The notes: generated by a model from the letters alone, not told the origin. A DNA stretch of 37,819 bases from an uncultured Candidatus Saccharibacteria bacterium (GCA_964585065.1 CAZPCB010000004.1:1-37819), one strand, 5' to 3'; counted from the stretch's first letter, positions 8,062 to 37,819 are shown. Numbers and translations: made by a program.

Positions 8062-8063
8062 CT

Positions 8064-9488
8064 ATGAAATATATTATCCCGAATACCAGTTTGGCGATAC
8101 AATTAGGTATATTGAGCGGAGCCTTGCTGGGCTCTTTTTTTGTATTACAGTCAATATGGATATTATTGACTATTCCCTTTGTAATAGCAATATATTGGCT
8201 TTATTCAGATATACGACTTATGCTACTCGCTGCAACTCTGATTGGGTTTATTGGAGCTGGATATTATATCAATACTATTATTGATAATTATCATACAATT
8301 CAAGATAGTATCCCTAATCGTATAGAGAATACAGAAATCATTATTGAGTCAAGTCCACGCCTACAGGCTTTTGGCTATCAATATCGGGTATATATACCCA
8401 AATATAAGGCCAAGGTCTTTATGAGTATTACAGATGATAATTTGATATATGGTAAGCGAATTATCGTAAAGGGAAAAACTTCAATCCCAGAAGAAGAGGG
8501 GATTAGGAGATTTTTATTGGGAAGAGGAATTCACAGGTATATGACTATTTCAGATTATACAATACAAGCTAATAATAGCTGTAATATACAATGCCATATA
8601 ATGCGAAATATTATACAAATGCAAAAGGGAATTATTAATAAAATTGATTCAGCTTATCCCAATCAAGTAGGAGAATTCTTAAAAGGTATTCTTATAGGCT
8701 ATACAGATACATTACCAACCGAGATAAAGGAATCATTCAAAAAGACGGGAGTAAGCCATATTTTGGCTGTTTCAGGATATAATATGGCAATTATTATAGT
8801 ACTTGTATATCAGCAGCTCATTAATAGACAAATATATAGGCAATTTTCATTTTGGATTACTATTGCAGTTATGATAGTATTCACTCTTTTAACCGGGGCT
8901 GAGGCTTCTATTATGCGGGCGGGTATATTTGCTGTAATTATACTCTCAGCAGAACAATTACAAAGATATGTAGGAGGTATGAGACCCCTGACATTATGTG
9001 CTACTATGTTAGTATTAATAAATCCTCTGTATATTGGCTATGATATTGGATTTCAATTATCATTCCTGGCAGTAATAGGACTTATAGTATATGGGCAATT
9101 ATTCAAAACATATACGGAAGGAATACCGAGCCTTGGAATATTACCAATGATAGGGGAGACATTATTTGCTCAAATTTTAGTATTACCATTACTCATATAT
9201 TATTTTGGACAAATATCCCTTATATCTATTATCGCTAATATACTTATTGTGCCTATCATACCTTTTGCGATGGCTTGGGGTAGTATTACGGCTTTGATTT
9301 TACCATGGAGGATTTTTACCTATCCTCTTGTGATTATTATTCAATTAGTGCTCGCCATGAATCATTATTTAGCCTCTCTATCATGGGCTAGCATAACAGT
9401 TCCTCATATAACAGGCTATATGCTAATTATAATATACGCTATAATGGGATTAGGATATTGGATTTATATACATAAAAGGAAAATATGA
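8064..9488 (+). CDS. comEC: ComEC/Rec2 competence membrane channel (OB and Competence domains), lacking the MBL domain
   Basis: KTGVSHILAVSGYN, LTGAEASIMRAG, DIGFQLSFLAV, SIIANILIVP. Start moved from the GTG at 8025 (inside the tRNA) to the ATG at 8064. Confidence 0.9.
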   Translation: MKYIIPNTSLAIQLGILSGALLGSFFVLQSIWILLTIPFVIAIYWLYSDIRLMLLAATLIGFIGAGYYINTIIDNYHTIQDSIPNRIENTEIIIESSPRLQAFGYQYRVYIPKYKAKVFMSITDDNLIYGKRIIVKGKTSIPEEEGIRRFLLGRGIHRYMTISDYTIQANNSCNIQCHIMRNIIQMQKGIINKIDSAYPNQVGEFLKGILIGYTDTLPTEIKESFKKTGVSHILAVSGYNMAIIIVLVYQQLINRQIYRQFSFWITIAVMIVFTLLTGAEASIMRAGIFAVIILSAEQLQRYVGGMRPLTLCATMLVLINPLYIGYDIGFQLSFLAVIGLIVYGQLFKTYTEGIPSLGILPMIGETLFAQILVLPLLIYYFGQISLISIIANILIVPIIPFAMAWGSITALILPWRIFTYPLVIIIQLVLAMNHYLASLSWASITVPHITGYMLIIIYAIMGLGYWIYIHKRKI

Positions 9489-10312
9489 AAATTAAAATAC
9501 TGATATGTATTATTAGTAGTATCATACTCATATATAGCTATCAGGAATATAGAAGATTAGTAAATCCAGAAGACCAAATATCATTTTTGAATATTGGGCA
9601 AGGGGATGCAAGCTTAATTCAATCTAAAAGAGGGGATAGAATTGTAATAGACTGTGGACCAAATTCAAAGGTTATTGATCAATTAGAAGCGAAATTAGGA
9701 TATTGGGCGCATCGTATTGATATGATTATTATTACTCATGGGGATAAGGATCATTTTGGTGGATGTAGGGATATTATTGATAGGTTTACAGTAGGCAAGG
9801 TGATGATAAATGGGGTATTCGATGAAAAGAATAAAAGTTATCAAGAATTACTGCAATATATCAAACAAAAAGATATCCCTATTTTACCCTCAATAGAAAA
9901 TACTACGATTACCTTGTCAGACAGTATAGAATTAACTTTATTAAATCCTCAGGAAAATCTTTGGGGGCAAAATATTATCAATGATAATCCTGAATCAATT
10001 GTTATGCTGCTGAGAAGCCAAAAACATTCAGTATTACTCACGGGAGACGCTGATGAGAATACAGAGAAAAAGATAATAGCTCAATACCCTCAATTGGACA
10101 TAGATATCTTGAAAGCCGGTCATCATGGGAGCAAAAGCTCCACATCAGAGCAATTCTTAGATGCTATTACTCCCCGACAAGTTATTATATCAGCAGGAGT
10201 TAACAATAGATATAATCATCCAAACCCAGATACAATAAAAAGGCTTGAGAATAGAAATGTTGAAATTAAAGAAGTGAAGAATTTTATGACAGGTATTGAC
10301 ATTTTATTATAA
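9485..10312 (+). CDS. ComEC-type metallo-beta-lactamase-fold nuclease (separate C-terminal half of ComEC)
   Basis: FLNIGQGDA, IDCG, THGDKDHFGG, LTGDA, LKAGHHGSKSS, ISAGVNNRYNHP. ATGA overlap with comEC. Confidence 0.9.
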   Translation: MKIKILICIISSIILIYSYQEYRRLVNPEDQISFLNIGQGDASLIQSKRGDRIVIDCGPNSKVIDQLEAKLGYWAHRIDMIIITHGDKDHFGGCRDIIDRFTVGKVMINGVFDEKNKSYQELLQYIKQKDIPILPSIENTTITLSDSIELTLLNPQENLWGQNIINDNPESIVMLLRSQKHSVLLTGDADENTEKKIIAQYPQLDIDILKAGHHGSKSSTSEQFLDAITPRQVIISAGVNNRYNHPNPDTIKRLENRNVEIKEVKNFMTGIDILL

Positions 10313-21638: not shown

Positions 21639-22358
21639 ATGGATGAGAGAAAACAACAATTTTTAGAATATGTAATACTTGATCATATTGACACTGCGCA
21701 ACCAGTATCTTCTTTGAATATTCAAAAAAAATATCAATTACCATATTCTAGTGCTACTATCCGTAATGAATTAGCTGAATTAGAAGCTGAAGGGTATTTG
21801 ATGCAAGTACATACTTCTTCAGGTAGAATACCCACAGATAAAGGATATCGATATTATGTTAATCGGCTTTTGGGAAGACAAGAAATTTTGAGGCAATATG
21901 CATCAGTGACACATACATTTTTGAATGAGATGAATACTATACAAGAAATTCATTTAAAACTTAAAAATGTATTATTATCCTTTGCTCAAGAGTCTGGTAA
22001 TGTTGCTATGGGTAAATTATCAACAGATTTAATATTTGAAGAGGGGGTTGCTACTTTTTTGACTCAACCTGGATTTTCATCAGTAGAATTTATTCATAAT
22101 GCTTTGGAGGATTTAGAAGAAATTAAATCTCATATTGATGAAATAGGTCGTGATGTGAGTCAGGGTAGCTATAAATTATATATTGGGGAGGAAAGCCCAC
22201 ATACTTCTATGCATAATTACGCAGTTATTGTAGGTAAATTCTCAATTGACTCAGATGATGGTACAATAGTTGTAGTGGGACCTAAAGGTATGCAATATGC
22301 AAAAAATATAGCCCTCGTTGAATATATGCTTAATAATGATACATATGAAGAAGAATAA
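21639..22358 (+). CDS. hrcA: Heat-inducible transcription repressor HrcA (short form)
   Basis: PVSS...SSATIRNELAELEAEGYLMQVHTSSGRIPTDKGYRYYVN; IGEE...GTIVVVGPKGMQY. Confidence 0.93.
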   Translation: MDERKQQFLEYVILDHIDTAQPVSSLNIQKKYQLPYSSATIRNELAELEAEGYLMQVHTSSGRIPTDKGYRYYVNRLLGRQEILRQYASVTHTFLNEMNTIQEIHLKLKNVLLSFAQESGNVAMGKLSTDLIFEEGVATFLTQPGFSSVEFIHNALEDLEEIKSHIDEIGRDVSQGSYKLYIGEESPHTSMHNYAVIVGKFSIDSDDGTIVVVGPKGMQYAKNIALVEYMLNNDTYEEE

Positions 22359-22845
22359 ATTAGATCAAGATAATACTGGTATAGAAGAAGTAACTATTCA
22401 AGAATTACAAGAGACTATTTCTCGTCTAGAACAAGATTTAGGACATAATTTAGCTGGTTGGCAAAGAGCTCAGGCTGATTATCAGAATTTAAAAAGAGAA
22501 TCTGATAGATTGCGAGTAGAAAGTATACAGCTTGCAAATAAAAATCTTATTGAGACATTAATTCCCGTTTTTGATAATTTTGCATTAGCCCTAAAGCATC
22601 TCCCAACTGAATTAGCTGATAATACATGGGTTCAAGGTATTACCTATATACATAAGCAATTACAAGATATTCTATTAGCAGAAGGGGTGGAAATTATTAA
22701 TCCATTAGGACAGGAATTCAATCCGCATATTCATGAGGCAGTTGACAGTGAGGGAGAAGGGAATACAATTACTGAAGTATTGCAGGTAGGATATACATTG
22801 CATGGAGCATTAATTCGCTCAGCTCGAGTAAAAGTATCTTCATAA
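22345..22845 (+). CDS. grpE: Nucleotide exchange factor GrpE
   Basis: QRAQADYQNLKR, LIPVFDNF, GQEFNPHIHEAV, EVLQVGYTLHGALIRSARVKV. Start set to the ATG at 22345. Confidence 0.93.
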   Translation: MKKNKLDQDNTGIEEVTIQELQETISRLEQDLGHNLAGWQRAQADYQNLKRESDRLRVESIQLANKNLIETLIPVFDNFALALKHLPTELADNTWVQGITYIHKQLQDILLAEGVEIINPLGQEFNPHIHEAVDSEGEGNTITEVLQVGYTLHGALIRSARVKVSS

Positions 22846-23938: not shown

Positions 23939-24481
23939 ATGAGATATAAAAAGGGATATAGTGTGATTGAAGTATTATTGGCGGGTTCAATTTTAGCTTT
24001 AGCGGTAGCTGGAATAGTGAGTGCTATTCTTATTGCGCAAAGAAACAATCAAGCGAGCATTGCCCAAAGTCAAGCCTTAGAAATGGCTCAAGAAGGAATA
24101 GAGGCATTAAGATCAATTCGAAATAGAGATTATAGATTATTAGTAAATACTACTACTCCAGCAGCTTTATCAAAAACTGGTAGTGATTGGAGTATTATTA
24201 CAAGTCCAGCTTCAACTGATGATCGATTAACGAGTCCTTTAAGAACCAGGCGAATTACTATTGCAAATGATACAACAGCTCTTGACTCAAAGTTAATAAC
24301 AGTGACAGTAACCTATCAAATTAATCCAGAAGGAGATACTAAAACAATTAGTTTGTCTGAAACTCTTGCTAATATTTTAACCAATAAACCTTCAGGGACT
24401 ACTGCTGCAAGTCAAAATTATCAATTAAGAGATGATAATTTTGGGAATGCACAAAGTACATTTAAAGACCCAACACCATAA
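23939..24481 (+). CDS. Type IV minor pilin (PilV/GspI-like)
   Basis: Class III signal KKG|YSVIE, hydrophobic helix, ALEMAQEGIEALRSIRN. Confidence 0.85.
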   Translation: MRYKKGYSVIEVLLAGSILALAVAGIVSAILIAQRNNQASIAQSQALEMAQEGIEALRSIRNRDYRLLVNTTTPAALSKTGSDWSIITSPASTDDRLTSPLRTRRITIANDTTALDSKLITVTVTYQINPEGDTKTISLSETLANILTNKPSGTTAASQNYQLRDDNFGNAQSTFKDPTP

Positions 24482-24915
24482 TGCTTAAAAGAGGATTTAC
24501 CCTATTAGAAATTTTATTAGTAATAGCCTTAATAGGTGTATTACTGGCTACAGTTTTACGACTGGTAAATCCTCAAAAACGGTTTGGAGATGTGAATAAT
24601 CTTCAGCGTAAATCAGATGTTCTTAGTATTTATACTGCTATTAATCAATATCGTGAAGATAATAGAGGTAATCTCCCAGTAGGTATTACGACCACAGCTA
24701 TAGATATCTGTCAGCCTGGTTGTGTTGAAGATTCTACTCAAATTGATATTACAACAGAAATATCTAAATATATTCGTCTTGGTAAGCCTCCCATAGACCC
24801 TGTACAGACAGGGACTATATTAACGGGATATACGGTATATGCTAATGCTCAGGGTAAAATTGTGGTATCAGCCCCTCTTGCAGAAAACTTAGTTACTATT
24901 AATACTATAGAATAA
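24481..24915 (+). CDS. Type IV pilin, probable major pilin
   Basis: KRG|FTLLEILLVIALIGVL...NPQKRF...QRKSDV...AINQY; PIDP motif. Confidence 0.9.
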   Translation: MLKRGFTLLEILLVIALIGVLLATVLRLVNPQKRFGDVNNLQRKSDVLSIYTAINQYREDNRGNLPVGITTTAIDICQPGCVEDSTQIDITTEISKYIRLGKPPIDPVQTGTILTGYTVYANAQGKIVVSAPLAENLVTINTIE

Positions 24916-24919
24916 ACAT

Positions 24920-26527
24920 ATGGCGATAAAAACATCACAAAAACCACTTATCAAATCAGCAATGTTTCGTATTTTTACGGCATTGATATTCTTGTTCACC
25001 GCAATGATTTATGTGCTTGTTGCAGGATTATGGTATTTACAATATTCAGGCAGTATTGATATTATTTATACCGCCCAAGTCACTAATGTATTAATGGGAA
25101 TTATCTTAGCTTTATTTGTAGTAGGTTGGTTTTTCTCTTATGGTATTTATGCGGGAATTATTAAACCAAGTTATGAAACATTTAATATTATTGCACAAAT
25201 TGTAGATGGTATTGCAAAGGGTGGAGATATTGACCGTGATCAAGTAGCCTATTTGCAGGAATTTATGCAAAGTTCTTTGTCTCAATTAAAGAAAAGCTCT
25301 ATTACTCGTAAAATAGATGTGTCTAAGGGGACAGAAGAATATATTAAAAAATTAGAATCCCTTACTAAACAAAATACTGAATTAGCAAAATCTAAAGAAG
25401 AATTATCACAATTAGTATTAAAGTTAGAAAAACAACAAAAATTATTACAATTGGAACAGGCTAAAACAACCGCTATTATTAATGCTATCCCAAATGGATT
25501 ATTAGCCTCTAGTCGAGATGGTAATATTTTCTTAGTCAATAAAGAGACTGAAAAACTATTAGGACTAGATTCCGATAAATTATTGGGGAGATTTATTAGT
25601 CAGGTATTACCATCTCAAGAAAATAGTTCTACAGATTCTAATCCCAATACATCATTATCAAAAGCTATTGAAGGGGAGCGTATTACAAGAGTATTTAGTT
25701 ATGAATCTCCTATTGATAAACAAAAAGTTACTATAGAGGATACTTCCAATCCCATTAAGGTAGATAATGATATTGTGGGTATTGTTAATATTATTCGAGA
25801 TAAGACGCAAGAGCAAGAAACAGAAAGAGCACAAAAAGAATTTGTATCTATTGCATCACATCAATTGAGAACCCCAATAACCTCTATAAAGTGGAATGCT
25901 GAATTATTATTATCCGCAGATAATTTGAGTCAGGATTTAAAGGATGCGGCTGATGATATTTACAAAGAGAATAATAGAATGGAAAAATTGGTCAATGCCT
26001 TATTAAATCTCTCCCGAATTGATTTGGGGACAATTAAATTTGTGACTAAAGAAATTAATATTATTGAATATATAGACACTTTATTAAAGACATTAAATTC
26101 AGAAATTGTTAAAAAGAATCTGAACATTCAAAAAGATATCAGTATTAATACCCCTATTATTAATGATCCAGTATATACAGATATTATTATTGGAAATATA
26201 GTATATAATGCGGTTAAATATACTCCTCCAAATAGAAATATATCTATTAAGGCCTATACCATTACCGAGAAGAATAGTGTACATATAGAAATAGCTGATA
26301 ATGGACTTGGCATACCAGCATCACAACAAGCTCAAATTTTTGGTAGATTATTCCGAGCAGATAATGCCAAAAATAGTCAGACAGATGGAAATGGACTCGG
26401 GTTATATGTCGTAAAAAAATTAGTAGAAGCTATGAGTGGAAATGTCTGGTTTCAATCTGAAGAAAATAAAGGTACCACATTCTTTATAGAGCTTCCACTT
26501 GTCGTGGATAATCACAATGTGATATAA
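24920..26527 (+). CDS. PAS-domain sensor histidine kinase
   Basis: Two TM helices, coiled coil, PAS (IINAIPNGL...LVNKETEKLLG), H-box ASHQLRTP, N-box NAVKYT, DNGLGIP, GNGLGL, GTTF. Confidence 0.93.
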   Translation: MAIKTSQKPLIKSAMFRIFTALIFLFTAMIYVLVAGLWYLQYSGSIDIIYTAQVTNVLMGIILALFVVGWFFSYGIYAGIIKPSYETFNIIAQIVDGIAKGGDIDRDQVAYLQEFMQSSLSQLKKSSITRKIDVSKGTEEYIKKLESLTKQNTELAKSKEELSQLVLKLEKQQKLLQLEQAKTTAIINAIPNGLLASSRDGNIFLVNKETEKLLGLDSDKLLGRFISQVLPSQENSSTDSNPNTSLSKAIEGERITRVFSYESPIDKQKVTIEDTSNPIKVDNDIVGIVNIIRDKTQEQETERAQKEFVSIASHQLRTPITSIKWNAELLLSADNLSQDLKDAADDIYKENNRMEKLVNALLNLSRIDLGTIKFVTKEINIIEYIDTLLKTLNSEIVKKNLNIQKDISINTPIINDPVYTDIIIGNIVYNAVKYTPPNRNISIKAYTITEKNSVHIEIADNGLGIPASQQAQIFGRLFRADNAKNSQTDGNGLGLYVVKKLVEAMSGNVWFQSEENKGTTFFIELPLVVDNHNVI

Positions 26528-26547
26528 TAAATTATATAAAGAATAAA

Positions 26548-26913
26548 ATGGCATATAGTATACTTATTGTTGAGGATGAACAAGCAATAGCACGTGTGCT
26601 TGATTTAAAATTAAAGCAGGCGGGTATTGTTACTACTGTTACTAATACAGGCAATCAGGCTTTAGAATTGGTTAAAACGCAAAATTATGATTGTATTCTC
26701 TTAGACCTAATTTTACCAGAGGTGGATGGATTTACTATATTAGAAGCTATTAGAGCAAAAAATCAAGCCACAAAGGTTATTGTAATGACAAATTTAGGGC
26801 AACCAGAAGACAGAAAAAGAGTGCAGGATTTAGTTGTATCCGGTTATTATGTAAAATCAGAAATATCAATTTCAAGTTTGATAGAAAATATAAAACAAAT
26901 ACTAGAGACATAA
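26548..26913 (+). CDS. Single-domain response regulator (receiver only)
   Basis: ILIVEDE, LLDLILP (phospho-Asp), VMTN, YYVK. 121 aa with no output domain. Confidence 0.93.
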   Translation: MAYSILIVEDEQAIARVLDLKLKQAGIVTTVTNTGNQALELVKTQNYDCILLDLILPEVDGFTILEAIRAKNQATKVIVMTNLGQPEDRKRVQDLVVSGYYVKSEISISSLIENIKQILET

Positions 26914-26956: not shown

Positions 26957-28687
26957 ATGGAACCACAGGTAATACTTGAGTTATTAGTTAATACACAGTA
27001 TATTACGGATGAAGACCGTAAATTGGCATTATCTAGTACTAATAATGATTTTGCTGTAGCCGTAGATTATTTGGTACAAACCAATTTAATCACCTATGAT
27101 ATTATAGGACAGGCTTTAGCTGAATCTTGGGGTGTTCCATATCTTGATTTGAATACCTTTATTCCTCCAAAACAAGATGTGACTAAAATTCCAGAAGCGG
27201 TAGCTCGGGAACTCAGATTAGTCTATTTTAAAGATTTACCAGATAAAATTCAAATTGCTTCAGATAATGATTTGGTATTAAAAGGAAATGCTAAGCTTAT
27301 TATTCGTAAAGAAGAGAAGGCTGGTATAATGGGAGGTAAAAAAGAGGTAAAGGAGGAAAGAGATTTGAGAGGGGAATTAGTAAAATTATTCAAAAAACCG
27401 GTAGAATTTGGATATTCTCTTACACAAGATGTAGATAAATTACTTTTGAGTTATAAAGCTCCATTGGCATCAAGATTTGTATCTATAATGCAAAAATTTG
27501 ATACAGTTGCCCCGGAAATTGTAGAGGAAATTGTACAAGAAGCGGTAGAGGAGAAAGTATCAGATATTCACTTTGAAGCTCAATATGATAAAACAGTAAG
27601 AATTAGGTTCCGTATTGATGGTATGTTGCAAGAAGTGGGAAGAATTCCATTTTCATATTATGAAAATGTATTAAATTTAATTAAAGTAAAATCTCAGTTA
27701 AGAACTGATGAACATTTTATTCCACAAGATGGTGCTCTTCGATTTGAAAAAGATAATAAGGTATCAGATGTACGTGTATCTATAGTCCCGACAGTATATG
27801 GAGAGAAAATTGTTTTAAGAGTGCTCACTAATACCTTATCAAATATCACTCTTGAAACATTAGGATTGAATGAGAAAAATATTAAAATTTTAAGAAAGGC
27901 AGCTCAAAAACCATTTGGTATGGTATTGGTAACAGGCCCTACTGGATCAGGAAAATCAACTACTTTATATTCTATTCTAAAGACCATTAATGATGAGGGA
28001 CGCAATATTACCACAATTGAGGATCCAGTAGAATATAAAATTGAAGGGGTAAATCATATTCAAGTTAATAAAGAAACAGATTTGACTTTTGCTCGTGGAC
28101 TTAGATCTATTTTGCGACAAGATCCTGATATTGTATTGGTAGGGGAGATTCGAGATGATGAGACAGCCCAAATTTCTATTAATGCTGCACTAACAGGACA
28201 TTTACTTTTTTCTACGGTTCACGCCAATGATGGAGAAAGTACTTTACCGCGATTATTGAATATGGATATTGACCCATTTCTTTTGTCCTCTACATTACAA
28301 TTAATTATTGCTCAAAGATTAATTCGTAAAATCTGCTCAGCTTGTGTATATACCTATACAGTCAGTAGAGTTGAATTAGAAAAGACAATAGGAGAGCCCC
28401 TAGTGCGATTTTTCCCTGAGGATACATTAACATTATATCGGGGAAAAGGATGTTCAAATTGTGGCTTTACCGGATATAAAGGAAGAAGTGGAGTATATCA
28501 ATGTATTGAAATGACAGAAGAATTAAGAGAGGCTACCCTTCATCATCCAACTGCAGATATCGTAGCAAAAATAGCTCGTAAGCAGGGGAGTCAATCATTA
28601 TTTGAAGATGGTATAGAAAAAGTACGATTGGGAGTAACTACACTTGATGAAGTAATGCGTGTAGCTCAAATACCAGAAGAAGATTAA
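26957..28687 (+). CDS. pilB: Type IV pilus / T2SS assembly ATPase (PilB/GspE)
   Basis: SDIHFE, RFRIDGML, PQDG, GPTGSGKSTTLY, TIEDPVEY, LRQDPDIVLVGEIRD, TGHLLFSTVHAND, Zn-binding CSAC...CSNC. Confidence 0.95.
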   Translation: MEPQVILELLVNTQYITDEDRKLALSSTNNDFAVAVDYLVQTNLITYDIIGQALAESWGVPYLDLNTFIPPKQDVTKIPEAVARELRLVYFKDLPDKIQIASDNDLVLKGNAKLIIRKEEKAGIMGGKKEVKEERDLRGELVKLFKKPVEFGYSLTQDVDKLLLSYKAPLASRFVSIMQKFDTVAPEIVEEIVQEAVEEKVSDIHFEAQYDKTVRIRFRIDGMLQEVGRIPFSYYENVLNLIKVKSQLRTDEHFIPQDGALRFEKDNKVSDVRVSIVPTVYGEKIVLRVLTNTLSNITLETLGLNEKNIKILRKAAQKPFGMVLVTGPTGSGKSTTLYSILKTINDEGRNITTIEDPVEYKIEGVNHIQVNKETDLTFARGLRSILRQDPDIVLVGEIRDDETAQISINAALTGHLLFSTVHANDGESTLPRLLNMDIDPFLLSSTLQLIIAQRLIRKICSACVYTYTVSRVELEKTIGEPLVRFFPEDTLTLYRGKGCSNCGFTGYKGRSGVYQCIEMTEELREATLHHPTADIVAKIARKQGSQSLFEDGIEKVRLGVTTLDEVMRVAQIPEED

Positions 28688-28692
28688 TTATT

Positions 28693-29937
28693 ATGGCATT
28701 TTTACAGAAATCAAATACAACAGAACAAGAAGCCTCAGTATTGCATACGGTTAAAACGGGTGAATTTGATGTAAAAAGCTCTATTTTTGATGAAATTGAC
28801 GAAGCTTATCCAGACAAGGCTCCACAACCAAATCCTCAGGCTATAAAAAATACAAATAAATTAAATCGTAAAAAAAGAGGAAGCAGTAAAGTTACTAAGG
28901 CAAAAAGAACTTTCCTCGATAATCTTGCTCTTTTAGTAAGTTCAGGAATGGGTGTTAATACTTCACTTCGTACATTAGAAAAAAACACTCAAGATAAAGC
29001 TCTCAAAAAGACCTTATATTCTATGTTAGTTAGTGTTGAAAGTGGAAGTAGTTTATCTCAAACAATGGATGAACATAATTTCCTTCCTAAATTTTTGATT
29101 TCTCTTATTAGAATTGGAGAAGAATCTGGTAATTTAGCTGATAAAATTCGAAAAACAGTTATTTCTCTGGATAAAGATAAGAAGCGTAAGGATCAATTAA
29201 GAACGGCCCTATTTTATCCACTTTTTGTTATGAGTTTGGTTATTATATTGGGAGTTGGGATTACAACATTTATTTTACCTCGTATTGGTCAAGTATTTGA
29301 AAATGTAAATGTTAAATTACCATTAATGACAAAAATTCTCATTCAAGTAGGAAATTTTCTGGGAACATATTGGTATATTATGGTCCCTGCTATATTTGGA
29401 ACATTTATCTTAACAATACTAGTATTATTTGTATTTCCTGGTACCAAAAAATCAGGGCAATGGTTAATGTTCCATTTACCCGTATTTAAAGATTTAATTC
29501 AAATGAGTGAAGTCTCCCGATTTTCATATAATCTTGCTATGTTATTAAATTCTGGTATACCTATTACCAAGGCACTTTTATCTTTAGCGGAAATCCATGA
29601 TTATTATATGTATAAGGAATATACTAAATCAGTAGCAGCCTATATTCAAGATGGAAAAAGTTTTCATAATAGCTTTGGGGTTAATCAAAAAGAGACTAAT
29701 AAGCTATTTGATTTTGCTGTTCAAGAAATTATCACTGCAGGAGAGGAGTCAGGAAAATTACCCGAAGTATTAGAACAAATTGGAGAGCGATATGAGGAAG
29801 AAGCAGAGCAAATTTCCAAAAATATTGCGGTATTATTAGAGCCAGCTTTATTAATTATTGTTTGGTTAGGAGTTGTATTTTTAGCTGTTTCTATTCTGCT
29901 CCCAATTTATAGTCTTGTTGGTAATTTCGAGGTATAA
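28693..29937 (+). CDS. pilC: Type IV pilus / T2SS inner-membrane platform protein (PilC/GspF)
   Basis: Two GspF repeats (GEESGNL, GEESGKL), ALFYP, LLEPALLI, ILLPIY. Confidence 0.95.
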   Translation: MAFLQKSNTTEQEASVLHTVKTGEFDVKSSIFDEIDEAYPDKAPQPNPQAIKNTNKLNRKKRGSSKVTKAKRTFLDNLALLVSSGMGVNTSLRTLEKNTQDKALKKTLYSMLVSVESGSSLSQTMDEHNFLPKFLISLIRIGEESGNLADKIRKTVISLDKDKKRKDQLRTALFYPLFVMSLVIILGVGITTFILPRIGQVFENVNVKLPLMTKILIQVGNFLGTYWYIMVPAIFGTFILTILVLFVFPGTKKSGQWLMFHLPVFKDLIQMSEVSRFSYNLAMLLNSGIPITKALLSLAEIHDYYMYKEYTKSVAAYIQDGKSFHNSFGVNQKETNKLFDFAVQEIITAGEESGKLPEVLEQIGERYEEEAEQISKNIAVLLEPALLIIVWLGVVFLAVSILLPIYSLVGNFEV

Positions 29938-29938
29938 T

Positions 29939-30421
29939 ATGAAAAGACAATATAAATCAGGATTTACATTAGTAGAAATCGTTCTAGTATTTGTATTAGT
30001 AGGAATTCTTATTGCAATAACCACACCTCTTGTAGTAGAGACAGTACAAAGAGCTGATTTAACCTCTGCACATGAATCTTTGTATAATGCCTTAACTAGA
30101 GCACAAAAATTATCACAAAGCCAAACTAATGGACAAGTATGGGGTGTTTGTCTTGATAATACCAATCATCGTTATATAATTGTTGCAGGAACCTGTAGCT
30201 CAAATGATAGGAATATTATATATGATGAAATCATAACTATTGCTCCTACTATCAGTATAGTAGGAAATGGTGGGAATAATATAGACTTTTCTCCTGTATC
30301 GGGATATAGCGATCCCAATGGTATTACTTTAACAAATGGGAGATTTAGTAAATTAATAAATGTAGACGGACAATTAATAGATAAAGACCCTATATCATTA
30401 GTCCCTCCACCAGCATTGTAA
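29939..30421 (+). CDS. Type IV minor pilin (FimU/GspH-like)
   Basis: KSG|FTLVEIVLVFVLVGILIAITTP. Start set to the ATG at 29939, just after the pilC stop. Confidence 0.85.
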   Translation: MKRQYKSGFTLVEIVLVFVLVGILIAITTPLVVETVQRADLTSAHESLYNALTRAQKLSQSQTNGQVWGVCLDNTNHRYIIVAGTCSSNDRNIIYDEIITIAPTISIVGNGGNNIDFSPVSGYSDPNGITLTNGRFSKLINVDGQLIDKDPISLVPPPAL

Positions 30422-30466
30422 ACTAACACCTACATAGATAAAGACCCTATATCATTAGTCCCTCCA
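30377..30466 (+). repeat. 33-bp perfect direct repeat (30377-30409 and 30434-30466)
   Basis: atagataaagaccctatatcattagtccctcca occurs twice, 57 bp apart, straddling the pilin stop codon. Confidence 0.95.
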
Positions 30467-30482
30467 GCAGGCTAATATAAAT

Positions 30483-32420
30483 TTATAATCCATAATAACT
30501 CTTGATATTAATTCGAATTGAATCAGAATTAGGACTATTATTATAGTCTAATATTTCAGAACAAAAGCCACTGAGACGTATATAAGATCCCGCTCCTCTT
30601 CCAATAATAAACTGACTAGAAGCAATTGGATTCCCCGATGCATAATAGAGATTTAAACTACTAAGATTATCTGATGAGCTGGTAGCAGCAGTCGTAGATC
30701 CATTGAGATAATAGGTAGTAAATAAATCACTTCCCAATGTTAAGGTGGCATAAGTTATATCTCTTGCAATAAATGATTGCGTATATCCAGATCTTCTACC
30801 TACCCAAAATGTCGCAGGATTCCCACTACTAAAAGCATTTATTGATGTTAATTCATCACCCCCATCAAACTGTAAGGATGGTCTATTATTCTGTATAACT
30901 ATACCATTAACCCCATCAATAATTTTAGGCTGGGCGAGGTTAGTGGTCTGAATGGCATTATTACTATTCCCCGATTGATCATACCAGATGGATACATATC
31001 CATCTCCTGTATTGGCATCAGCCACAGTTTGCTGATAGGGCTTAGGTGCACTAGTGAGAGATGTATTGATATGCCTCTGTCCTCCCCAGACAAAGATAGA
31101 ATCAGCAGCAGAGGCTACATTTACTGTCTCTAATCTTGTTGAGGAGTTAGAATTAACTATAGCAAGAGTAATATTTCCAGCTCCATTAGTAGTAGCGGTA
31201 GCAGAGAGGGATATTCTATACCATCCATTTTCAACTGAGGTTATAGTAGACTGACCTGTAATAATTCCAGAAGAAGAACCTAAAGTGCCATTACTGAGAT
31301 TATAATTTTGATAAGAGGTATTCCCTGGAAAGGCAGCTCCATTAGGAGCTAATTGTACAAAATTATAACCATTATTAGCCTTAACATAATAGGAATCGGT
31401 ATAAATTGTACCATCTGTTAAAGTGGTATCTTTACTGATAGATCTTGCAGTATCAGGGGATCCAGCATTTAAATTTATTTTTTCAGCAGTATTTGTTCCA
31501 TTAGGTGCAACTGTATTATCGGCGACTGTTGTGAGATTAGGGAACACCCATCCTAATGGAATAGTAATATTTTCAGATTGAGTAAGGAAATTCTGATATC
31601 CTACAAAATTCTGGAGGGAGACACTATCAAAATCTCCAGATTTAGTAAAGCCAATATCACTTTCTGCTTGATCGGCGCCCCTATCTCGTCTTACTCTAAC
31701 CGCTGCTCCCGTGTACCCATCAGAGAATTTATTAGAGCTACTATTCACACCAGATAATTTGCGTAAACTATATGCTACACCATCATTATTATTAGGACTC
31801 TGCCCAGCTGGAATAATTGGATTATCATTGAGAACAGGATTAAATGATGTTTTTTTGGCTTGTTCAATAGGAATAACAGTTTCAAAAGCTTTTTCAGCAT
31901 CATATTCATTCCCACTGAGTATCGGCTTTTTATATACGAGAGTAAATTTTACTTTGATCGCTTGCATTATTCCATTGTGGTTACTCTGATCCTGATTATT
32001 AATTTGTTCAAATGATAAACTAGAAGCTAAAACTTGAATATTAGTGGGGTTGATTTTTGTAACAGGAACACTACTAGCAGTATATATAATATCAGCAGCA
32101 TTTTGAGTAATACTAGATGGTTCTACTATAAGATACCTATTGTCTTGCATAATAAGTGAAGGAGATGTTCCACCACCTACAATTGGTGTTATAATAGAAC
32201 GTTGATTAGTTATATTACTATTAATATAACTCTGAATTTGACGAATAATATTTTCTCCTGTTTGATTGAGTTCATTATTTACTCTAAAGGTAGTGGAAAG
32301 ACGAGTAATTTGAATAAAAGAAAAAGCCACAATAACCAAAGTTATACCACCAACAACAACATATAATAATATTTCTAAAAGAGTGAATCCTGAGTATTTT
32401 TTCATATTAATAAGCGCCAT
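30483..32420 (-). CDS. PilW/GspJ-like minor pilin fused to a large jelly-roll domain with an inserted phage-fibre-like module
   Basis: YSG|FTLLE prepilin motif and about 185-aa pilin domain, then AYSLRKL...AVRVRR...DIGF, NFLTQSE...APNGTNTAEKI...NGWYRIS...VWGGQ, and WYDQSGN...NNRPSLQFDG. Confidence 0.8.
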   Translation of the reverse strand: MALINMKKYSGFTLLEILLYVVVGGITLVIVAFSFIQITRLSTTFRVNNELNQTGENIIRQIQSYINSNITNQRSIITPIVGGGTSPSLIMQDNRYLIVEPSSITQNAADIIYTASSVPVTKINPTNIQVLASSLSFEQINNQDQSNHNGIMQAIKVKFTLVYKKPILSGNEYDAEKAFETVIPIEQAKKTSFNPVLNDNPIIPAGQSPNNNDGVAYSLRKLSGVNSSSNKFSDGYTGAAVRVRRDRGADQAESDIGFTKSGDFDSVSLQNFVGYQNFLTQSENITIPLGWVFPNLTTVADNTVAPNGTNTAEKINLNAGSPDTARSISKDTTLTDGTIYTDSYYVKANNGYNFVQLAPNGAAFPGNTSYQNYNLSNGTLGSSSGIITGQSTITSVENGWYRISLSATATTNGAGNITLAIVNSNSSTRLETVNVASAADSIFVWGGQRHINTSLTSAPKPYQQTVADANTGDGYVSIWYDQSGNSNNAIQTTNLAQPKIIDGVNGIVIQNNRPSLQFDGGDELTSINAFSSGNPATFWVGRRSGYTQSFIARDITYATLTLGSDLFTTYYLNGSTTAATSSSDNLSSLNLYYASGNPIASSQFIIGRGAGSYIRLSGFCSEILDYNNSPNSDSIRINIKSYYGL

Positions 32421-33501
32421 ATTTAGTATTGAGATATATATTAATTTTGTCTAAGTCTGTATCACTTAATTTTTTACTAAAAACAAGAATTTCCGCAATA
32501 TCACCAGAGAAAAATCCATTTACCCCACTTTGTTGAGCCCCCACAATAATAGGGGTGTCAGTAGAAGTGATATCAGTAAAAGATGTAAGAGCATTTGTCG
32601 GGGGGAGTATATTATTGATATTAAGGCTACTTGCTGTTGATGGAACCCAGCGAGCTGTAATAATACGAAGATTCGTATTATTGGCAAATGATACTGTTTC
32701 ATTTACTTGTTCTGCTGTTGCAAGATCAGTTGCAATAAAGTCATCATTTTGTAAACGCCATTCCCTTTTATTGTCTGTAGTATTAAATTTTGAAATATAG
32801 GTTTGATTGGTTGAAGCTGAATTAGATTTTCCCGCAACAATTACAGTAAGTCCACCCGTACTAGCTGTATTATTATTATGTATAGAAGTTGCAGTTCCTG
32901 TCAAAAAATCATCTATTCCATCAAATCGTAAGGCAGGTCTATTATTAATAGCATTAGTAACTAGGGTCGGTGCAAGAGTAGGGCTTGTTGCTACTTGAGC
33001 AAAAGTAATAAGATCATCAGTTGCATTTTTGATACTAGTAACGGGCTGTCCATTATTACTCTCTGCTCTATCAGCTTTCAGCCATAATCTTAATGCCAAA
33101 GGATCTATTGTATAGGGGTTATCAGAAGGGGCTGATTCAATAAACTTTTGATATTCAATAATAATTTTAGGATTAATTTGTGTTATTTTGGTCTCAAGAA
33201 TTTTATTACCTCTTTTTACTTGAATTAACCTCTCCCCATTACCAGTCCCCGTAACAGTATATACTCGACATTTTTCAGTTGGAAATGTTTCATCCCCCCC
33301 ATAAAACTTATATAATTTAAGTTTTGCTAATACTTTTTCTGTACAATTACGAGCTTGAGACTCATCTTGGGCAGCATCAGCTACATCAATATTTGTTTTA
33401 GCAACTTGTGTACTAGAACTAAGCGCACTAAGAGCTAAAGCTACTCCTACAGCACAAACTATAATAGTTAATAATAATACGCTAAATCCAGAACGATACA
33501 T
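32407..33501 (-). CDS. PilX/GspK-like minor pilin fused to a LamG-like jelly-roll domain
   Basis: RSG|FSVLL (no Glu5, typical of PilX/GspK), ARNCTEKVLAKL, then LRLWLKAD...NNRPALRFDGIDDFL...GDIAEILVFSKKLS...YLNTKYG. Confidence 0.8.
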   Translation of the reverse strand: MYRSGFSVLLLTIIVCAVGVALALSALSSSTQVAKTNIDVADAAQDESQARNCTEKVLAKLKLYKFYGGDETFPTEKCRVYTVTGTGNGERLIQVKRGNKILETKITQINPKIIIEYQKFIESAPSDNPYTIDPLALRLWLKADRAESNNGQPVTSIKNATDDLITFAQVATSPTLAPTLVTNAINNRPALRFDGIDDFLTGTATSIHNNNTASTGGLTVIVAGKSNSASTNQTYISKFNTTDNKREWRLQNDDFIATDLATAEQVNETVSFANNTNLRIITARWVPSTASSLNINNILPPTNALTSFTDITSTDTPIIVGAQQSGVNGFFSGDIAEILVFSKKLSDTDLDKINIYLNTKYGAY

Positions 33502-33526
33502 ATATACTTTTGTTTATCATATAGTT

Positions 33527-33559
33527 ATTATACCATAATAATGAAATATTTGATATACT
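33527..33559. promoter_or_regulatory. Back-to-back divergent extended -10 promoters
   Basis: Minus strand TGGTATAAT (33535-33527) and plus strand TGATATACT (33551-33559). Confidence 0.7.
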
Positions 33560-33581
33560 AAATAAAGTAAAAATATACTAT

Positions 33582-34352: not shown

Positions 34353-35474
34353 ATGTTGAGATTATTATACCGCATAGACTGGGTGCTTGTCATACCAACT
34401 ATACTTGTTTCAATAATGGGGATAATTACCTTGGTAAGTTTTTATATACATTCAGTTGAAATTGTAACTGTGGGACTTATCATTAAACACAGTATTTCAA
34501 TTATATTGGGTCTTGTCATTGCTTTTATATTATCAAATATTGATTATAGGGGCTTGTCATCACTTATAAGGCCATTATTTTTTACCATTACGGGATTATT
34601 GGTACTGGTATTATTAATTGGTAATACCGTAAATGGAGCAAAAAGTTGGTTTTCTTTAGGTGGTTTTAATATTCAACCTGCAGAACTTGCAAAAATTGTG
34701 GTAATTATTATTATTGCTCAATATTTTAATAGATATCATTATAGACTTAATAATTTTTGGACTATTATTGCTTCATTATTACCAATTAGTATTATTGGAG
34801 CATTAATTTTGATACAGCCAGATTTTGGAACCTTTTCTATTATTGGTTCTATTTGGCTCGGGATGATTATATTTGGTGGGGTGCGCTTTAAACATATTAT
34901 GATATTATTTTCGATAGGGATTATAACTCTTATCAGTTTATGGACTTGGTTTTTAGAAGAATATCAAAAGCAAAGGATTTTAACATTTTTTGATCCAACA
35001 TTAGATCCTTTGGGTAGTGGATATAATACATTGCAGGTAATTAAATCGGTGAGTGCCGGAGGATGGCTCGGGAATGCAAGTCAACTAATTACCGTACCTG
35101 AAATTCATACCGATTTTATTTTTGCAGGTTTTGCACAGCAATGGGGATTTATTGGTATATCGGTATATTTTATTCTCATGATATGTATATTGGGAAGAAT
35201 GATATATATCGGACTGAAAACTCAGGATGGTTTTGCTCGAATGATTATATTGGGAGTGATATTGTGTTTTTTGATACAAATACTCATTAATATCGGTATG
35301 AATGTTGGTATATTACCAATTACCGGTATTACCTTGCCCTTTATGAGTTATGGAGGAAGTTCAATGATAGTTTCTTGGATATTAATAGGATTATTATTAT
35401 CAATCAAAAATAATCAGGAGGCAAAGGGAACTATTTTTATGAGGGATAATCAAGATATGTATTTGATACCGTGA
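34353..35474 (+). CDS. rodA: SEDS-family peptidoglycan polymerase (RodA/FtsW)
   Basis: IDW, GAKSWF...IQPAELAKI, QPDFGT, YQKQRILTFFDP..DPLGSGYN, VPEIHTDFIFA, PITGITLPFMSYGGSS. Confidence 0.9.
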   Translation: MLRLLYRIDWVLVIPTILVSIMGIITLVSFYIHSVEIVTVGLIIKHSISIILGLVIAFILSNIDYRGLSSLIRPLFFTITGLLVLVLLIGNTVNGAKSWFSLGGFNIQPAELAKIVVIIIIAQYFNRYHYRLNNFWTIIASLLPISIIGALILIQPDFGTFSIIGSIWLGMIIFGGVRFKHIMILFSIGIITLISLWTWFLEEYQKQRILTFFDPTLDPLGSGYNTLQVIKSVSAGGWLGNASQLITVPEIHTDFIFAGFAQQWGFIGISVYFILMICILGRMIYIGLKTQDGFARMIILGVILCFLIQILINIGMNVGILPITGITLPFMSYGGSSMIVSWILIGLLLSIKNNQEAKGTIFMRDNQDMYLIP

Positions 35475-35608: not shown

Positions 35609-35733
35609 TACTCTAAAAAAGTATAGGAACAACCTGAATAAAAATAAAAAACTGAATAAGATACCCCCCTATACAAAGATAGAAAAGAGTGATAGTCTTA
35701 AAAAAAGTAAATGTAAAATAAAAAAGATATACT

Positions 35734-37819
35734 ATGGGATATATACTCTTTAATATAGAGCAAGATCCTGTTATAGGATTTCAAATTGATCAACAAAAAA
35801 AACAAGAATCTAAGAGAAGAAACAGAATAATTGTTATTATTGCTATTCTTCTTGTTGTATTATTGATGGTGGGGATTTTTAATGGAATTATACCATCCTT
35901 ATTTAAGGGACAGAGTAATAAAGTACCTCTAGTAGATAATTCTAGACCACCTAAGGTTTTGTCGCCTACAAAACCTGATTCTCCTGTATTTAATACTCAA
36001 GATACTGCTATACAACAGTCTTTATCTGAACTTGCTATAAATGATAATATATCACCCGTAAAGAAATTAACAAGTTTACCAAAGTACAAATCAGTAGTAA
36101 ACCCTAGTATAGTAATTCCTACTATACCGAATACTCCAACAATCCCGAATACTCCAACAATCCCAATTATCCCTCCAGATACAGATAATGGAGAAGATGA
36201 TGATATAGATAATCCCTTGAACACAGCTACAGGAATACGAGATAGAGATTTTTATACAGGAGGACAGAGTGTTGAATTAGTTTCGAATCCAAATATTTAC
36301 ATTGATATTGAAAACTTTGATTTTCAAATATCACAAACCACTGTTTTAGCAATACAGAGTGACGGTAATATATTAGTAAATACATTTAATACTGAGTCTT
36401 ATATCAATAATATATTTAAAATGAATCAGGATGGGGATATAGATGAAAGTTTTGATTCAGGGGATATAAGTTGTTGTGTATTTGATATAAAGGAACAGTC
36501 AGATGGAAAGATATTAGTCGGAGGAGATTTTAATGAGTATCGAGGAGAATCAACTAATGGGATAGTTAGACTCAATAGTGATGGAAGCAGAGATACAAGT
36601 TTTAATATAGGGACAGGATTTGGTGGGAATGTAAATAATGGCGACTCTGTCAATACTTTAGCCATACAGGAAGATGGCAAGATAATAGTAGGGGGTAATT
36701 TTACTAGCTATAATGGTGTGGAGGCAAATAAGATTATACGACTCAATAGTGATGGAAGTAGAGATCTTAGTTTTGATATAGGGACAGGATTTCATAGTGG
36801 TGATGGTAGGGTCTTCGAATTAGCTATTCAAACAGATGGAAAGATATTGATAGGAGGAGAGTTTTGGAATTATAAAGGACAGTCTGCAAATGGAATAATA
36901 AGACTCAATTCAGATGGAAGTAGAGATCTTAGCTTTGATATACAAACAGGATTTGGGGGAGATGCAGTAACAAGTATAGTAGTACAAAGTGATGGAAATA
37001 TATTGGTAGGAGGAGATTTTCGAGCATATAAAAATAATTCAGTAAACAGATTGATTAGGTTAACAAGTGATGGTGAAACAGATCTCTCATTTAATGCAGA
37101 TATGTCTTTACCAAATATAAATAAATATTTTTATATACAAGATATTTATGAACAAAATGATGGCACATTATTTATCTCATTTCAGGGTGCCGTTGATACT
37201 ATTCAGGATTTTGGAAGGGGTTTTGTAAAACTAAATAGTAATGGAAGTAGAGATGCAAGTTTTAGTTTAGATTCAGCAAGAGTACGTCCTTTTGGTTTCC
37301 CTAACATTCCTAATAAAATTTTACTAGTTAATAACACTATTTTTACAGGAGGATTCATTGTAACAGTTGATAATTTATATAATGCTGATGGAGAATTGAT
37401 TGATATGCAGATGATAGATTTTGAAGACGAAGATTGGATTTATGACTTTTTTACTTATGGAGGAGCAATTGACTTAACTTTTGGAAGTATTCTGAAATTT
37501 AATTTGGATGGTAGTAGATCTACTGACTTTGAAAGTGAATGGTCACCTAGATTTAAAATTACCTACAAAATTTCTTTTGACTCAGATGTCAGTGTAGTTA
37601 CAACTCAAAACGATGGAAAGATATTGGTAGGAGGATATTTTAGCAATTATAAGGGAGAAGCAGCTAACAGAATAATTAGACTCAATACAGATGGAAGCCG
37701 AGATACAAGTTTTGATGTAGGGGGAGGATTTGATGGAAATGTAAATACTATAACCATACAGTCAGATGGAAAGATATTGGTAGGAGGATATTTTAGCAAT
37801 TATAAGGGAGAAGCAGCTA
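35734..37819 (+). CDS. Membrane-anchored delta-60-repeat (beta-propeller) surface protein, 3'-truncated by the window and missing from the ORF track
   Basis: I translated frame 1 by hand from the ATG at 35734 to the window end with no stop. TM helix (IIVIIAILLVVLLMVGIF), Pro/Thr-rich linker (PTIPNT repeats), then many Q.DGKILVGG.F...RLN.DGSRD.SF repeats. Confidence 0.9.
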   Translation, partial: MGYILFNIEQDPVIGFQIDQQKKQESKRRNRIIVIIAILLVVLLMVGIFNGIIPSLFKGQSNKVPLVDNSRPPKVLSPTKPDSPVFNTQDTAIQQSLSELAINDNISPVKKLTSLPKYKSVVNPSIVIPTIPNTPTIPNTPTIPIIPPDTDNGEDDDIDNPLNTATGIRDRDFYTGGQSVELVSNPNIYIDIENFDFQISQTTVLAIQSDGNILVNTFNTESYINNIFKMNQDGDIDESFDSGDISCCVFDIKEQSDGKILVGGDFNEYRGESTNGIVRLNSDGSRDTSFNIGTGFGGNVNNGDSVNTLAIQEDGKIIVGGNFTSYNGVEANKIIRLNSDGSRDLSFDIGTGFHSGDGRVFELAIQTDGKILIGGEFWNYKGQSANGIIRLNSDGSRDLSFDIQTGFGGDAVTSIVVQSDGNILVGGDFRAYKNNSVNRLIRLTSDGETDLSFNADMSLPNINKYFYIQDIYEQNDGTLFISFQGAVDTIQDFGRGFVKLNSNGSRDASFSLDSARVRPFGFPNIPNKILLVNNTIFTGGFIVTVDNLYNADGELIDMQMIDFEDEDWIYDFFTYGGAIDLTFGSILKFNLDGSRSTDFESEWSPRFKITYKISFDSDVSVVTTQNDGKILVGGYFSNYKGEAANRIIRLNTDGSRDTSFDVGGGFDGNVNTITIQSDGKILVGGYFSNYKGEAA
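37612..37819 (+). repeat. Identical 55-bp segments of adjacent delta-60 repeats (37612-37666 and 37765-37819)
   Basis: gatggaaagatattggtaggaggatattttagcaattataagggagaagcagcta occurs twice, 153 bp apart; the second copy runs to the window end. Confidence 0.9.

Follow-up and report, generated by a model that had tools for sequence, protein, structure and literature searches.

We analysed a 37,819-nucleotide stretch of DNA from an uncultured Candidatus Saccharibacteria bacterium (GCA_964585065.1, CAZPCB010000004.1:1-37819; hereafter the window), in which positions 30483-33501 hold two open reading frames (ORFs), X364 and W645, within a type IV pilus (T4P) gene cluster. Both lie on the minus strand and run convergently with the plus-strand pilB-pilC-gspH-like genes; the pilus genes around the pair are all on the plus strand, so that an initial annotation was right to place the pair opposite to the cluster. 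That annotation also took each gene to fuse a prepilin to a jelly-roll cargo, and profile and Foldseek searches agree, assigning both cargos to the concanavalin A (ConA)/LamG type: each protein joins a pilin module to a module not specific to T4P biology, which is the definition of a modular pilin (Raynaud et al. 2021, PMC8179133). The DNA of the window is low in GC (~32%), its nearest relatives are freshwater metagenome-assembled genomes labelled Candidatus Paceibacteria, Parcubacteria or Minisyncoccia, and identical sequence was recovered in riverine, lake, drinking-water and groundwater metagenomes.

The larger protein, W645 (30483-32420, minus strand; 645 aa as listed), would occupy the J position of a minor-pilin set. 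As listed, its ORF overlaps that of X364 by 14 nt; its real start is probably Met6 (nt 32405), which places the X364 stop 1 nt away. From Met6 the leader reads MKKYSG/FTLLE, a canonical class III signal peptide with Glu5; the longer frame has a stop at codon 2 in the related locus L002, and orthologues without an upstream ATG begin MKK[YH]SGF (MRNYSGF in L007), so that the listed start, MALINM..., is probably five codons too long. PF07963 is matched by W645 with 22 bits against a cutoff of 21.2 and by 45/45 orthologues. The pilin module (residues 1-199; 31824-32420, minus) has a helix at 14-69 and strands between 74 and 185 in the AlphaFold2 (AF2) model, where block means of the predicted local distance difference test (pLDDT) are mostly 60-86 over residues 11-190, with dips at 95-99 and 142-151. 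A profile of this module finds only generic major pilins in the PDB, and a homologue search with the module alone, for other cargos on the same carrier, returned two partial proteins only and was uninformative.

The cargo of W645 consists of an outer ConA-like domain in two segments, with a second domain between them (all minus strand). The N-terminal, GH54-N-like segment (GH, glycoside hydrolase) comprises residues 200-275 ('AYSLRKL...VRVRRD...DIGF...FVG'; 31596-31823); the C-terminal, LamG-like segment comprises residues 465-645, from 'WYDQSGN...NNRPSLQFDG' (30486-31028), and matches phrog_10356 at E 1.5e-6; residues 276-464 (31029-31595) form a nested domain of the 'gene transfer agent (GTA) head spike fibre' or carbohydrate-binding module (CBM)-like type. 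Residues 276-457 match NF048003 (GTA_spike_fiber) with 69.9 bits against a curated cutoff of 36 (E 4e-19). A profile of 45 W645 orthologues finds the RcGTA head spike fibre Rcc01080 (PDB 6tb9) at E 3.9e-17 and, over residues ~259-450, two phage baseplate/tail proteins (E217 gp45 and Pa193 gp46) at ~1e-8. The domain also matches phrog_5939 ('tail protein', E 1.4e-9), and Foldseek pairs it with phage baseplate proteins, CBM4/16/22/61 and many structural proteins of uncultured phages. At the level of sequence, the domain is a bona fide member of the GTA_spike_fiber family. The AF2 model of W645 is uneven (mean pLDDT 64.6), with residues 290-455 at 80-94.

Insertion of the spike-fibre domain into a single outer ConA-like domain is proven by comparison of homologous proteins, not by the model, because the outer domain is modelled with low confidence. 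In P0111, P0077, P0091, P0078, P0082, P0104 and others, the homologue of W645 residues 215-281 runs directly into the homologue of residues 466-540; in P0111 the junction reads '...TTAIATFCGSNNGFVTRWYDQSGNGN...' and is crossed by positions 13-89 of PF09206, the GH54 catalytic family with a ConA-like sandwich. The point of insertion lies between 'FVG' (~residue 275) and 'GDGYVSIWYDQSGN' (~residue 472). The initial annotation had recognised a second module with a phage pattern nested in this cargo, which NF048003, the RcGTA structure and the homologues with contiguous flanks all bear out. Orthologues of ~790 aa (P0013, P0049 and P0053; loci L010 and L012) have, in turn, a PA14/GLEYA domain (E 1e-17 to 1e-21) inside the nested domain, between '...TTVADNTV' and 'APNGTNTAEK', which gives three nesting levels.

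The smaller protein, X364 (364 aa; 32407-33501, minus), is encoded directly upstream of W645, to which its gene is coupled. A pilin module (residues 1-124; 33130-33501, minus) precedes a LamG_3/ConA-like, lectin-type beta-sandwich (residues 125-364; 32410-33129, minus). The N-terminus reads MYRSG/FSVLLL, with Leu at +5; among 48 orthologues Gly5-[FY]6 is conserved, a hydrophobic helix follows the cleavage motif, and Glu5 is never present. The AF2 model (pLDDT 78.5, predicted template modelling score 0.75) has a long N-terminal helix, a four-stranded sheet at ~71-121 and, at 137-341, a beta-sandwich with a helix at its end; DSSP assigns an alpha-1 helix and the four-stranded sheet to the pilin module, which holds conserved Cys53 and Cys78. 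A Foldseek search of the PDB aligns X364 with the Streptococcus sanguinis minor pilin PilC (7oa8) over 313 columns that include both modules (E 1.6e-6); other matches of the cargo are the cyanopodophage Pan3 tailspike, a trans-sialidase lectin domain and the Hc of botulinum and tetanus neurotoxins (BoNT/TeNT), at E 1e-7 to 1e-5. The cargo matches phrog_10356 at E 2.6e-9, and precomputed PF13385 matches are found in ~20 X364 orthologues.

It might be argued that X364 is not a pilin but a signal-anchored membrane lectin that is co-transcribed with a pilin by chance. It has no PF07963 match and no Glu5, and a profile of its N-terminal module matches nothing in the PDB or Pfam; PF03934 (T2SSK) reaches E 0.049 only, and does so within the LamG part. 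We hold this to be very unlikely, given that the Gly-Phe/Tyr cleavage motif at 5/6 is conserved ahead of a hydrophobic helix, that the modelled helix and four-stranded sheet are those of short pilin modules and align with PilC together with the cargo, and that translational coupling with W645 is kept in all loci. The missing Glu5 also counts against it, since K, the subunit that caps the H-I-J-K minor-pilin complex, is characterised by just this lack (PMC9934059). X364 combines a pilin leader and helix, no Glu5, a bulky extra domain and a gene that adjoins the J subunit, as a K-type cap does, and by analogy with GspK/PilX it most likely caps the filament.

The two cargos share the motif NNRP.L.FDG that the initial annotation reported: it reads NNRPSLQFDG at W645 residues 511-520 and NNRPALRFDG at X364 residues 186-195. 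The reported identity of 25 of 29 nt between 30862-30890 and 32918-32946 is confirmed, and a repeat search extends it to 41 nt at 78% (W645 copy NNRPSLQFDGGDE, 30850-30890; X364 copy NNRPALRFDGIDD, 32906-32946; both minus). Alignment by hhalign of the C-terminal ~180 residues of W645 with the X364 LamG gives a probability of 97.1% (E 5.6e-11, 23% identity, 73 columns). The two proteins share the motif because their LamG-type domains are homologous and have kept their first strand; it is the product neither of chance nor of a recent duplication.

The nested domain has a large family: at E<=1e-3 it comprises 5029 cluster representatives, of which 1377 also pass E<=1e-10, and long proteins with many repeats predominate. 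A pilin N-terminus is absent from all of the 147 closest non-orthologous representatives. The composite of outer N-segment, nested domain and LamG start is 35-39% identical over ~310 residues to pilin-free proteins of 440-750 aa, and its closest non-pilin relatives sit in tail modules of uncultured phages; the genomic context of three was examined. P0085 lies on a 49.8-kb contig with a large terminase (phrog_2, E 5e-20) and a portal, immediately downstream of a beta-helix (pectate-lyase-type) tailspike; P0088 adjoins a minor-tail/virion protein on a contig that carries RecT; and P0091 lies on a contig of small co-directional ORFs with Amidase_2 and phage-type GroEL/ES. When the W645 cargo was compared by tblastn with 50,697 deposited phage genomes, nothing matched at E<=1e-5; the link is drawn from profile searches and from phage contigs in metagenomes. 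The homology of the W645 cargo to phage receptor-binding hardware is therefore real, whichever way the module was transferred. The cargos had been called phage-derived; for W645 the composite is indeed homologous to phage tail-cluster proteins, and for X364 the term is not specifically supported, since LamG is ubiquitous. Pilin-fused cargos of the W645 type are at least 46% identical among themselves, and their identity to non-pilin copies never exceeds 39%, for which one ancient fusion of pilin and cargo is the simplest reading. In one protein, P0070 (653 aa), Gly_rich_2 (PF21722) replaces the pilin module before a W645-type cargo (52% identity), so that this cargo also occurs on a non-pilin carrier.

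Some of these matches raise a different function, in which the cargos would be enzymes: ConA/GH54-like glycosidases or depolymerases on the pilus tip that digest the capsule or wall of a partner. Distant homologues match PF09206, the catalytic domain of GH54 arabinofuranosidase B; Foldseek matches include endo-arabinanase, GH98, GH101 and tailspikes; and the tailspike beside the phage homologue P0085 is of pectate-lyase type. We nevertheless regard an enzymatic role as distinctly unlikely: the homologues cover only positions ~11-89 of the 315 in PF09206 and leave the catalytic part unmatched, neither W645 nor its insert-deleted construct matches the family, the Foldseek matches to enzymes have low TM-scores and are aligned via CBM or lectin domains, and the best-characterised relatives, Rcc01080 and PilC, are binders. 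Glycan binding is the function that we favour for both cargos.

In a reading that builds on the initial annotation, the pair is a recently acquired, phage-derived cassette that could be inverted or swapped. The opposite strand, a promoter of its own and the phage homologues of the W645 cargo speak for such a history, as does a cargo GC slightly above that of the pilin part (0.36-0.40 vs 0.30). Against it, 10 related loci have the same gene order and the same inverted pair, with the more distant proteins 45-60% identical: GrpE-MraY-pilin-pilin-histidine kinase-response regulator-PilB-PilC-GspH-like, followed by the W and X genes in inverted orientation and by orf255-FtsW. Position and orientation are thus fixed down to ~50% identity; comparison across relatives did uncover the expected turnover of cargo modules, and orientation never changes. 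GC at third codon positions (GC3) is 0.20 and 0.16 in the two genes, and their codon-usage distance falls inside the range of the window; no compositional signal of foreign origin is present. Flanking inverted repeats, template repeats, a recombinase, shufflon elements and elements of a diversity-generating retroelement (DGR) were looked for at the locus and none was found; a shufflon, DGR or inversion mechanism is rejected on these grounds. The cargo is kept orthologously and at least as well as the pilin domain, mean identities among 44 W645 orthologues being 62% for the nested domain, 54% for LamG and 49% for the globular pilin domain, and the identities of pilin-fused cargos fit one ancient fusion. 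Fixed order and orientation, native codon usage, the lack of mobile signatures and orthologous cargo together leave the cassette reading unsupported; it is already largely refuted, and we give it next to no likelihood. To judge from the related loci, the arrangement of the pair is ancestral to the clade and not a recent acquisition.

Within this fixed arrangement the cargo varies. Compared with the closest relative, L001, a divergence hot spot at approximately 30200-31500 reaches ~14% against a background of mostly 0-2%; it runs from the 3' end of the H-pilin gene across the convergent gap into the cargo of W645, both its LamG and its nested part, whereas the neighbouring genes are 95-100% identical and X364 is 99% identical. 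Synonymous divergence (dS) is 0.26 in the W645 cargo and 0.05 in the rest, and the ratio of nonsynonymous to synonymous divergence (dN/dS) is ~0.25 in both. Raised dS at equal dN/dS argues for a recombination tract that imported a diverged allele under purifying selection; the five-fold dS with dN/dS of ~0.25 in both halves rules out positive selection. The same alternative cargo allele of W645 is present in metagenome contigs X8 and X9. Metagenome contigs show the two alleles on one backbone, and assemblies break in the gap. Further small hot spots relative to L001 lie at 22000-22500, 24500-25000 and 34750-35000; one of these takes in the C-terminal half of the 144-aa pilin and the start of the kinase gene, and another falls inside ftsW.

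Modules also move between carriers. Some X364 orthologues have an extra C-terminal LamG or a ~70-aa insert, and the H-like pilin carries a LamG cargo in L004 (396 aa) and L009 (398 aa); in L012 (784 aa; L012:12628-14982, minus) a long glycine-rich domain precedes the LamG. The H-pilin LamG is 40-44% identical to the extra LamG of the K-pilin orthologues P0141 and P0145, which indicates the same module on different carrier pilins of one tip set. Turnover is, on the evidence of these comparisons, at the level of modules, through insertion, transfer between carrier pilins and recombination of cargo alleles. In L007 (12046-13249, minus) an H-like pilin with LamG appears to be split into two ORFs (267 and 155 aa), which may reflect a frameshift, a pseudogene or an assembly error. 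L017 (1204-3093, minus) encodes another modular pilin architecture of the clade, a 629-aa protein in which a canonical pilin N-terminus (KKG/FTLLEILL) is fused to beta-propeller-type repeats (SAGSRDIF.AKYN.NGTL.WAKR).

Candidates for H, I, J and K subunits, PilB and PilC are all encoded inside the window. The I-type (PilV/GspI/ComGE-like) candidate is a 180-aa minor pilin (23939-24481, plus) with weak NCBIfam matches (ComGE 5e-7, PilV 1e-4), followed by a small 144-aa pilin (24481-24915, plus; TIGR02532 and GspG-type matches) that is the candidate major pilin. The PilB extension ATPase (PilB/T2SSE; 26957-28687, plus; PF00437, E 3e-119) and the PilC platform protein (PilC/T2SSF; 28693-29937, plus; PF00482, E 3e-51) are followed by a 168-aa H-type (GspH/FimT/ComGD-like) minor pilin that is cargo-free here (29915-30421, plus; TIGR01708 E 2.6e-8, PF12019 E 1.8e-3, PF07963) and whose gene converges on W645. 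No intrinsic terminator is predicted in the convergent gap between these two genes, which holds only a 57-nt tandem duplication. A 37-nt direct repeat with 57-nt spacing (30377-30413 and 30434-30470) copies the 3' end of the H-type gene (...IDKDPISLVPP...) into this gap; one copy is missing in the metagenome contig of run X8 ('skips 57'), and two assemblies break at the repeat.

The divergent intergenic region upstream of X364 (33502-33581, 80 nt) contains a candidate extended -10 box, TGGTATAAT (33527-33535, minus), 25 nt upstream of the X364 ATG. The box is present in 11/11 aligned loci as TGrTAT[AC]AT, 10 of them having TGrTATAAT and L003 TGGTATCAT, and a second conserved box in the same region fits the -10 of the divergent gene. 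That the pair has its own promoter, as the initial annotation had it, is therefore plausible, with TGGTATAAT as the candidate box. The PilX-like and PilW-like names given to the two genes hold for position and for the logic of Glu5 and do not extend to sequence family: neither X364 nor W645 has a significant profile match to GspK, PilX, PilW or GspJ.

PilY1 (PF05567) has no match among the window ORFs scanned, as the initial annotation had noticed, nor was it found within ~10 kb to the left or right of W645 in those related loci whose flanks are complete (L005, L006 and L008 are cut by contig ends). Its absence is unremarkable and expected for monoderm-type and Candidate Phyla Radiation (CPR) pili, and the proposed PilY1-independent tip of lectin-bearing modular minor pilins is of a kind already known in S. 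sanguinis (PMC9934059).

Taken together, these data suggest that X364 and W645 are the two largest members of a four-part H-I-J-K minor-pilin set at the tip of a T4P of an ultra-small bacterium of the Paceibacteria (CPR/Patescibacteria), where they would act as glycan-binding partner adhesins; we consider this reading probable, its claims on tip location, glycan binding and partner specificity being drawn by analogy. X364 and W645 would be transcribed as one operon from the conserved extended -10 promoter, and the four minor pilins would prime assembly and stay at the tip. X364, which has no Glu5, would sit on top and display its LamG/ConA-type lectin domain, with W645 beneath it displaying a ConA-like domain that holds an inserted phage/GTA-type receptor-binding domain of the RcGTA head-spike-fibre family. 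The two to three beta-sandwich modules could then point outward and attach to polysaccharide on the surface of a partner cell or substrate, PilB-driven extension bringing the pilus into contact; retraction is not encoded in the window. Diversity would arise through module insertion, module transfer between carriers and homologous recombination of cargo alleles. Glycan-mediated binding of a partner is made the most likely function by three published findings: capsular polysaccharide is the ligand of the RcGTA head spike fibre (PMC7296036, PMC10218006), S. sanguinis PilC binds sialylated glycans (PMC9934059), and minor pilins that resemble lectins have an influence on host binding in Saccharibacteria (PMC11623550).

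Several points weigh against this interpretation. X364 is assigned as a pilin by motif, fold and context and not by a family match, and W645 and X364 are assigned to J and K by elimination. X364 scores against PF13385 (LamG_3) at E 2.8e-4 with 21.5 bits, under the cutoff of 27.6, and no Pfam family matches the W645 cargo in any of the 45 orthologues, in the insert-deleted construct or in the nested domain alone. The AF2 model of W645 is poor at residues 188-237 and also at 529-645, a part of the outer domain where pLDDT is 25-60. ConA-like folds also include glycoside hydrolases, and RNA runs, which bear on the proposed promoter, were looked for and none was found. Finally, ComEC (PF03772, E 1e-49) followed by a gene of metallo-beta-lactamase (MBL) fold lies at 8025-10312 (plus), ~20 kb upstream, and a ComEC within a pilus-gene window makes a role of the pilus in DNA uptake equally compatible.

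It is conceivable that X364 and W645 are real modular tip pilins of more general use, serving DNA uptake, surface attachment or motility, whose lectins would recognise particles, polysaccharide in the environment or the envelope of the cell itself without determining host-cell specificity. CPR bacteria rely on scavenged nucleotides, the ComEC and MBL-fold genes are at hand, and orthologous retention of the cargo across a ~50%-divergent clade argues for a conserved ligand over a fast-changing host range. We think this unlikely, while giving it some weight, since the cargo is a strain-level recombination hot spot, modules are gained, lost and moved among relatives as expected of partner-recognition proteins, and host binding is affected by the lectin-like minor pilins of Saccharibacteria (PMC11623550). 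The partner-adhesin reading also invites a bolder proposal, which we hold to be doubtful, that the phage/GTA-type module on the CPR pilus tip recognises the same partner surface polysaccharide as co-occurring phages. The cargo would then evolve in the manner of a phage receptor-binding protein, through allelic recombination, LamG[spike-fibre[PA14]] insertions and the transfer of lectins among H, J and K; if true, the genes would be readable host-range determinants for uncultured Paceibacteria.

The closest architectural counterpart of X364 is S. sanguinis PilC (with PilA/PilB; 7oa7/7oa8; PMC9934059, PMC8179133), which likewise couples a short pilin module to a ConA-like lectin module in a monoderm-type T4P without PilY1, where a Glu5-less partner and another modular pilin are encoded together. 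Sequence similarity to PilC is undetectable; the Glu5-less subunit itself bears the lectin here, the second modular pilin has a nested phage/GTA domain in place of a vWA domain, and the organism is a CPR bacterium. PF13385 and PA14 are among the commonest modules of modular pilins, and CPR examples exist (PMC8179133). In Nanosynbacter lyticus TM7x, the minor pilin PilX1 has a C-terminal L-type-lectin-like beta-jelly-roll implicated in host binding via cell-wall glycans (PMC11623550); PilX1 and PilX2 are CPR T4P minor pilins too, and lectin pilins in episymbiosis are a shared concept. TM7x belongs to another phylum-level lineage, and the likeness noted is one of concept: no nested GTA-spike-fibre domain is reported there, and PilX2 uses a beta-propeller, whereas two adjacent pilins (three in some relatives) bear LamG-type modules at the present locus.

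With Rcc01080 (6tb9), E217 gp45 (8env), Pa193 gp46 (9b45) and NF048003, the nested domain of W645 shares family membership, and with the phage tail-region proteins P0085 and P0088 W645 shares the composite of outer and nested module, but the anchor of the nested domain in W645 is a type IV pilin instead of a capsid or baseplate. The set resembles GspH-I-J-K and FimU-PilV-PilW-PilX in having four minor pilins, one of them without Glu5 and the two largest adjacent and co-transcribed, and the role expected of such sets, priming assembly and forming the tip, may apply by analogy. It differs in that J and K have no family match, the genes lie on two strands and are split by the histidine kinase, the response regulator and pilB/pilC, a PilY1 partner is missing, and the extra domains are C-terminal beta-sandwiches, not the GspK alpha-domain. 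In the IncI thin-pilus PilV (R64/TP114; PMC9045228) and the type IVb CofB/TcpB, the C-terminal part of a minor pilin sets partner-cell recognition and variants are exchanged; unlike PilV, which depends on a shufflon recombinase, and CofB, with its trimeric beta-domains, the present pair diversifies by homologous recombination and domain insertion over evolutionary time.

Three features are new: a pilin whose ConA-like domain encloses a head-spike-fibre domain of GTA/phage type, in some cases with a third level; a pilin cargo module common to tail proteins of uncultured phages; and the way in which lectin modules recombine and are combined differently on H, J and K carriers. They extend the modular-pilin concept to up to three nesting levels and to a receptor-binding module shared at 35-39% identity with uncultured-phage tail proteins, thereby linking phage receptor-binding proteins with pilus adhesins in a common pool of interchangeable parts. 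Paceibacteria are very abundant and almost entirely uncultured, and how they find and attach to partners is nearly unstudied. The locus offers adhesin candidates that can be expressed, namely two tip pilins with three beta-sandwich modules, and a natural variant series (PA14 insertions, LamG on different carriers, and a backbone that carries either of two cargo alleles in freshwater metagenomes) with which partner cells or glycans could be fished.

Other genes of the window touch on the pilus less directly. A PAS histidine kinase and a stand-alone receiver protein (24920-26913, plus) lie between the small pilin genes and pilB; they are kept in all loci that reach this region (L001-L007, L009 and L012) and may be pilus regulators. 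A membrane-anchored protein of >696 aa with at least six DUF5122 beta-propeller repeats (PF17164, E 2e-84) is encoded two genes away from the pilin pair (35731-37818, plus) and runs past the window end. It is the only propeller found and not a member of the PilY1 (PF05567) family; of the related loci, L001 and L004 alone have a homologue in this position, and a surface beta-propeller beside a CPR pilus locus recalls TM7x PilX2. At the other end of the window, an ORF at 54-1580 (plus) contains a 264-nt tandem repeat of 99% identity (92-619), with a third partial copy at the window start; the repeat unit corresponds to an 88-aa domain, repeated in a protein that is rich in Thr/Ser, looks secreted, continues into an Ig/FN3-like region and belongs to no clear family.

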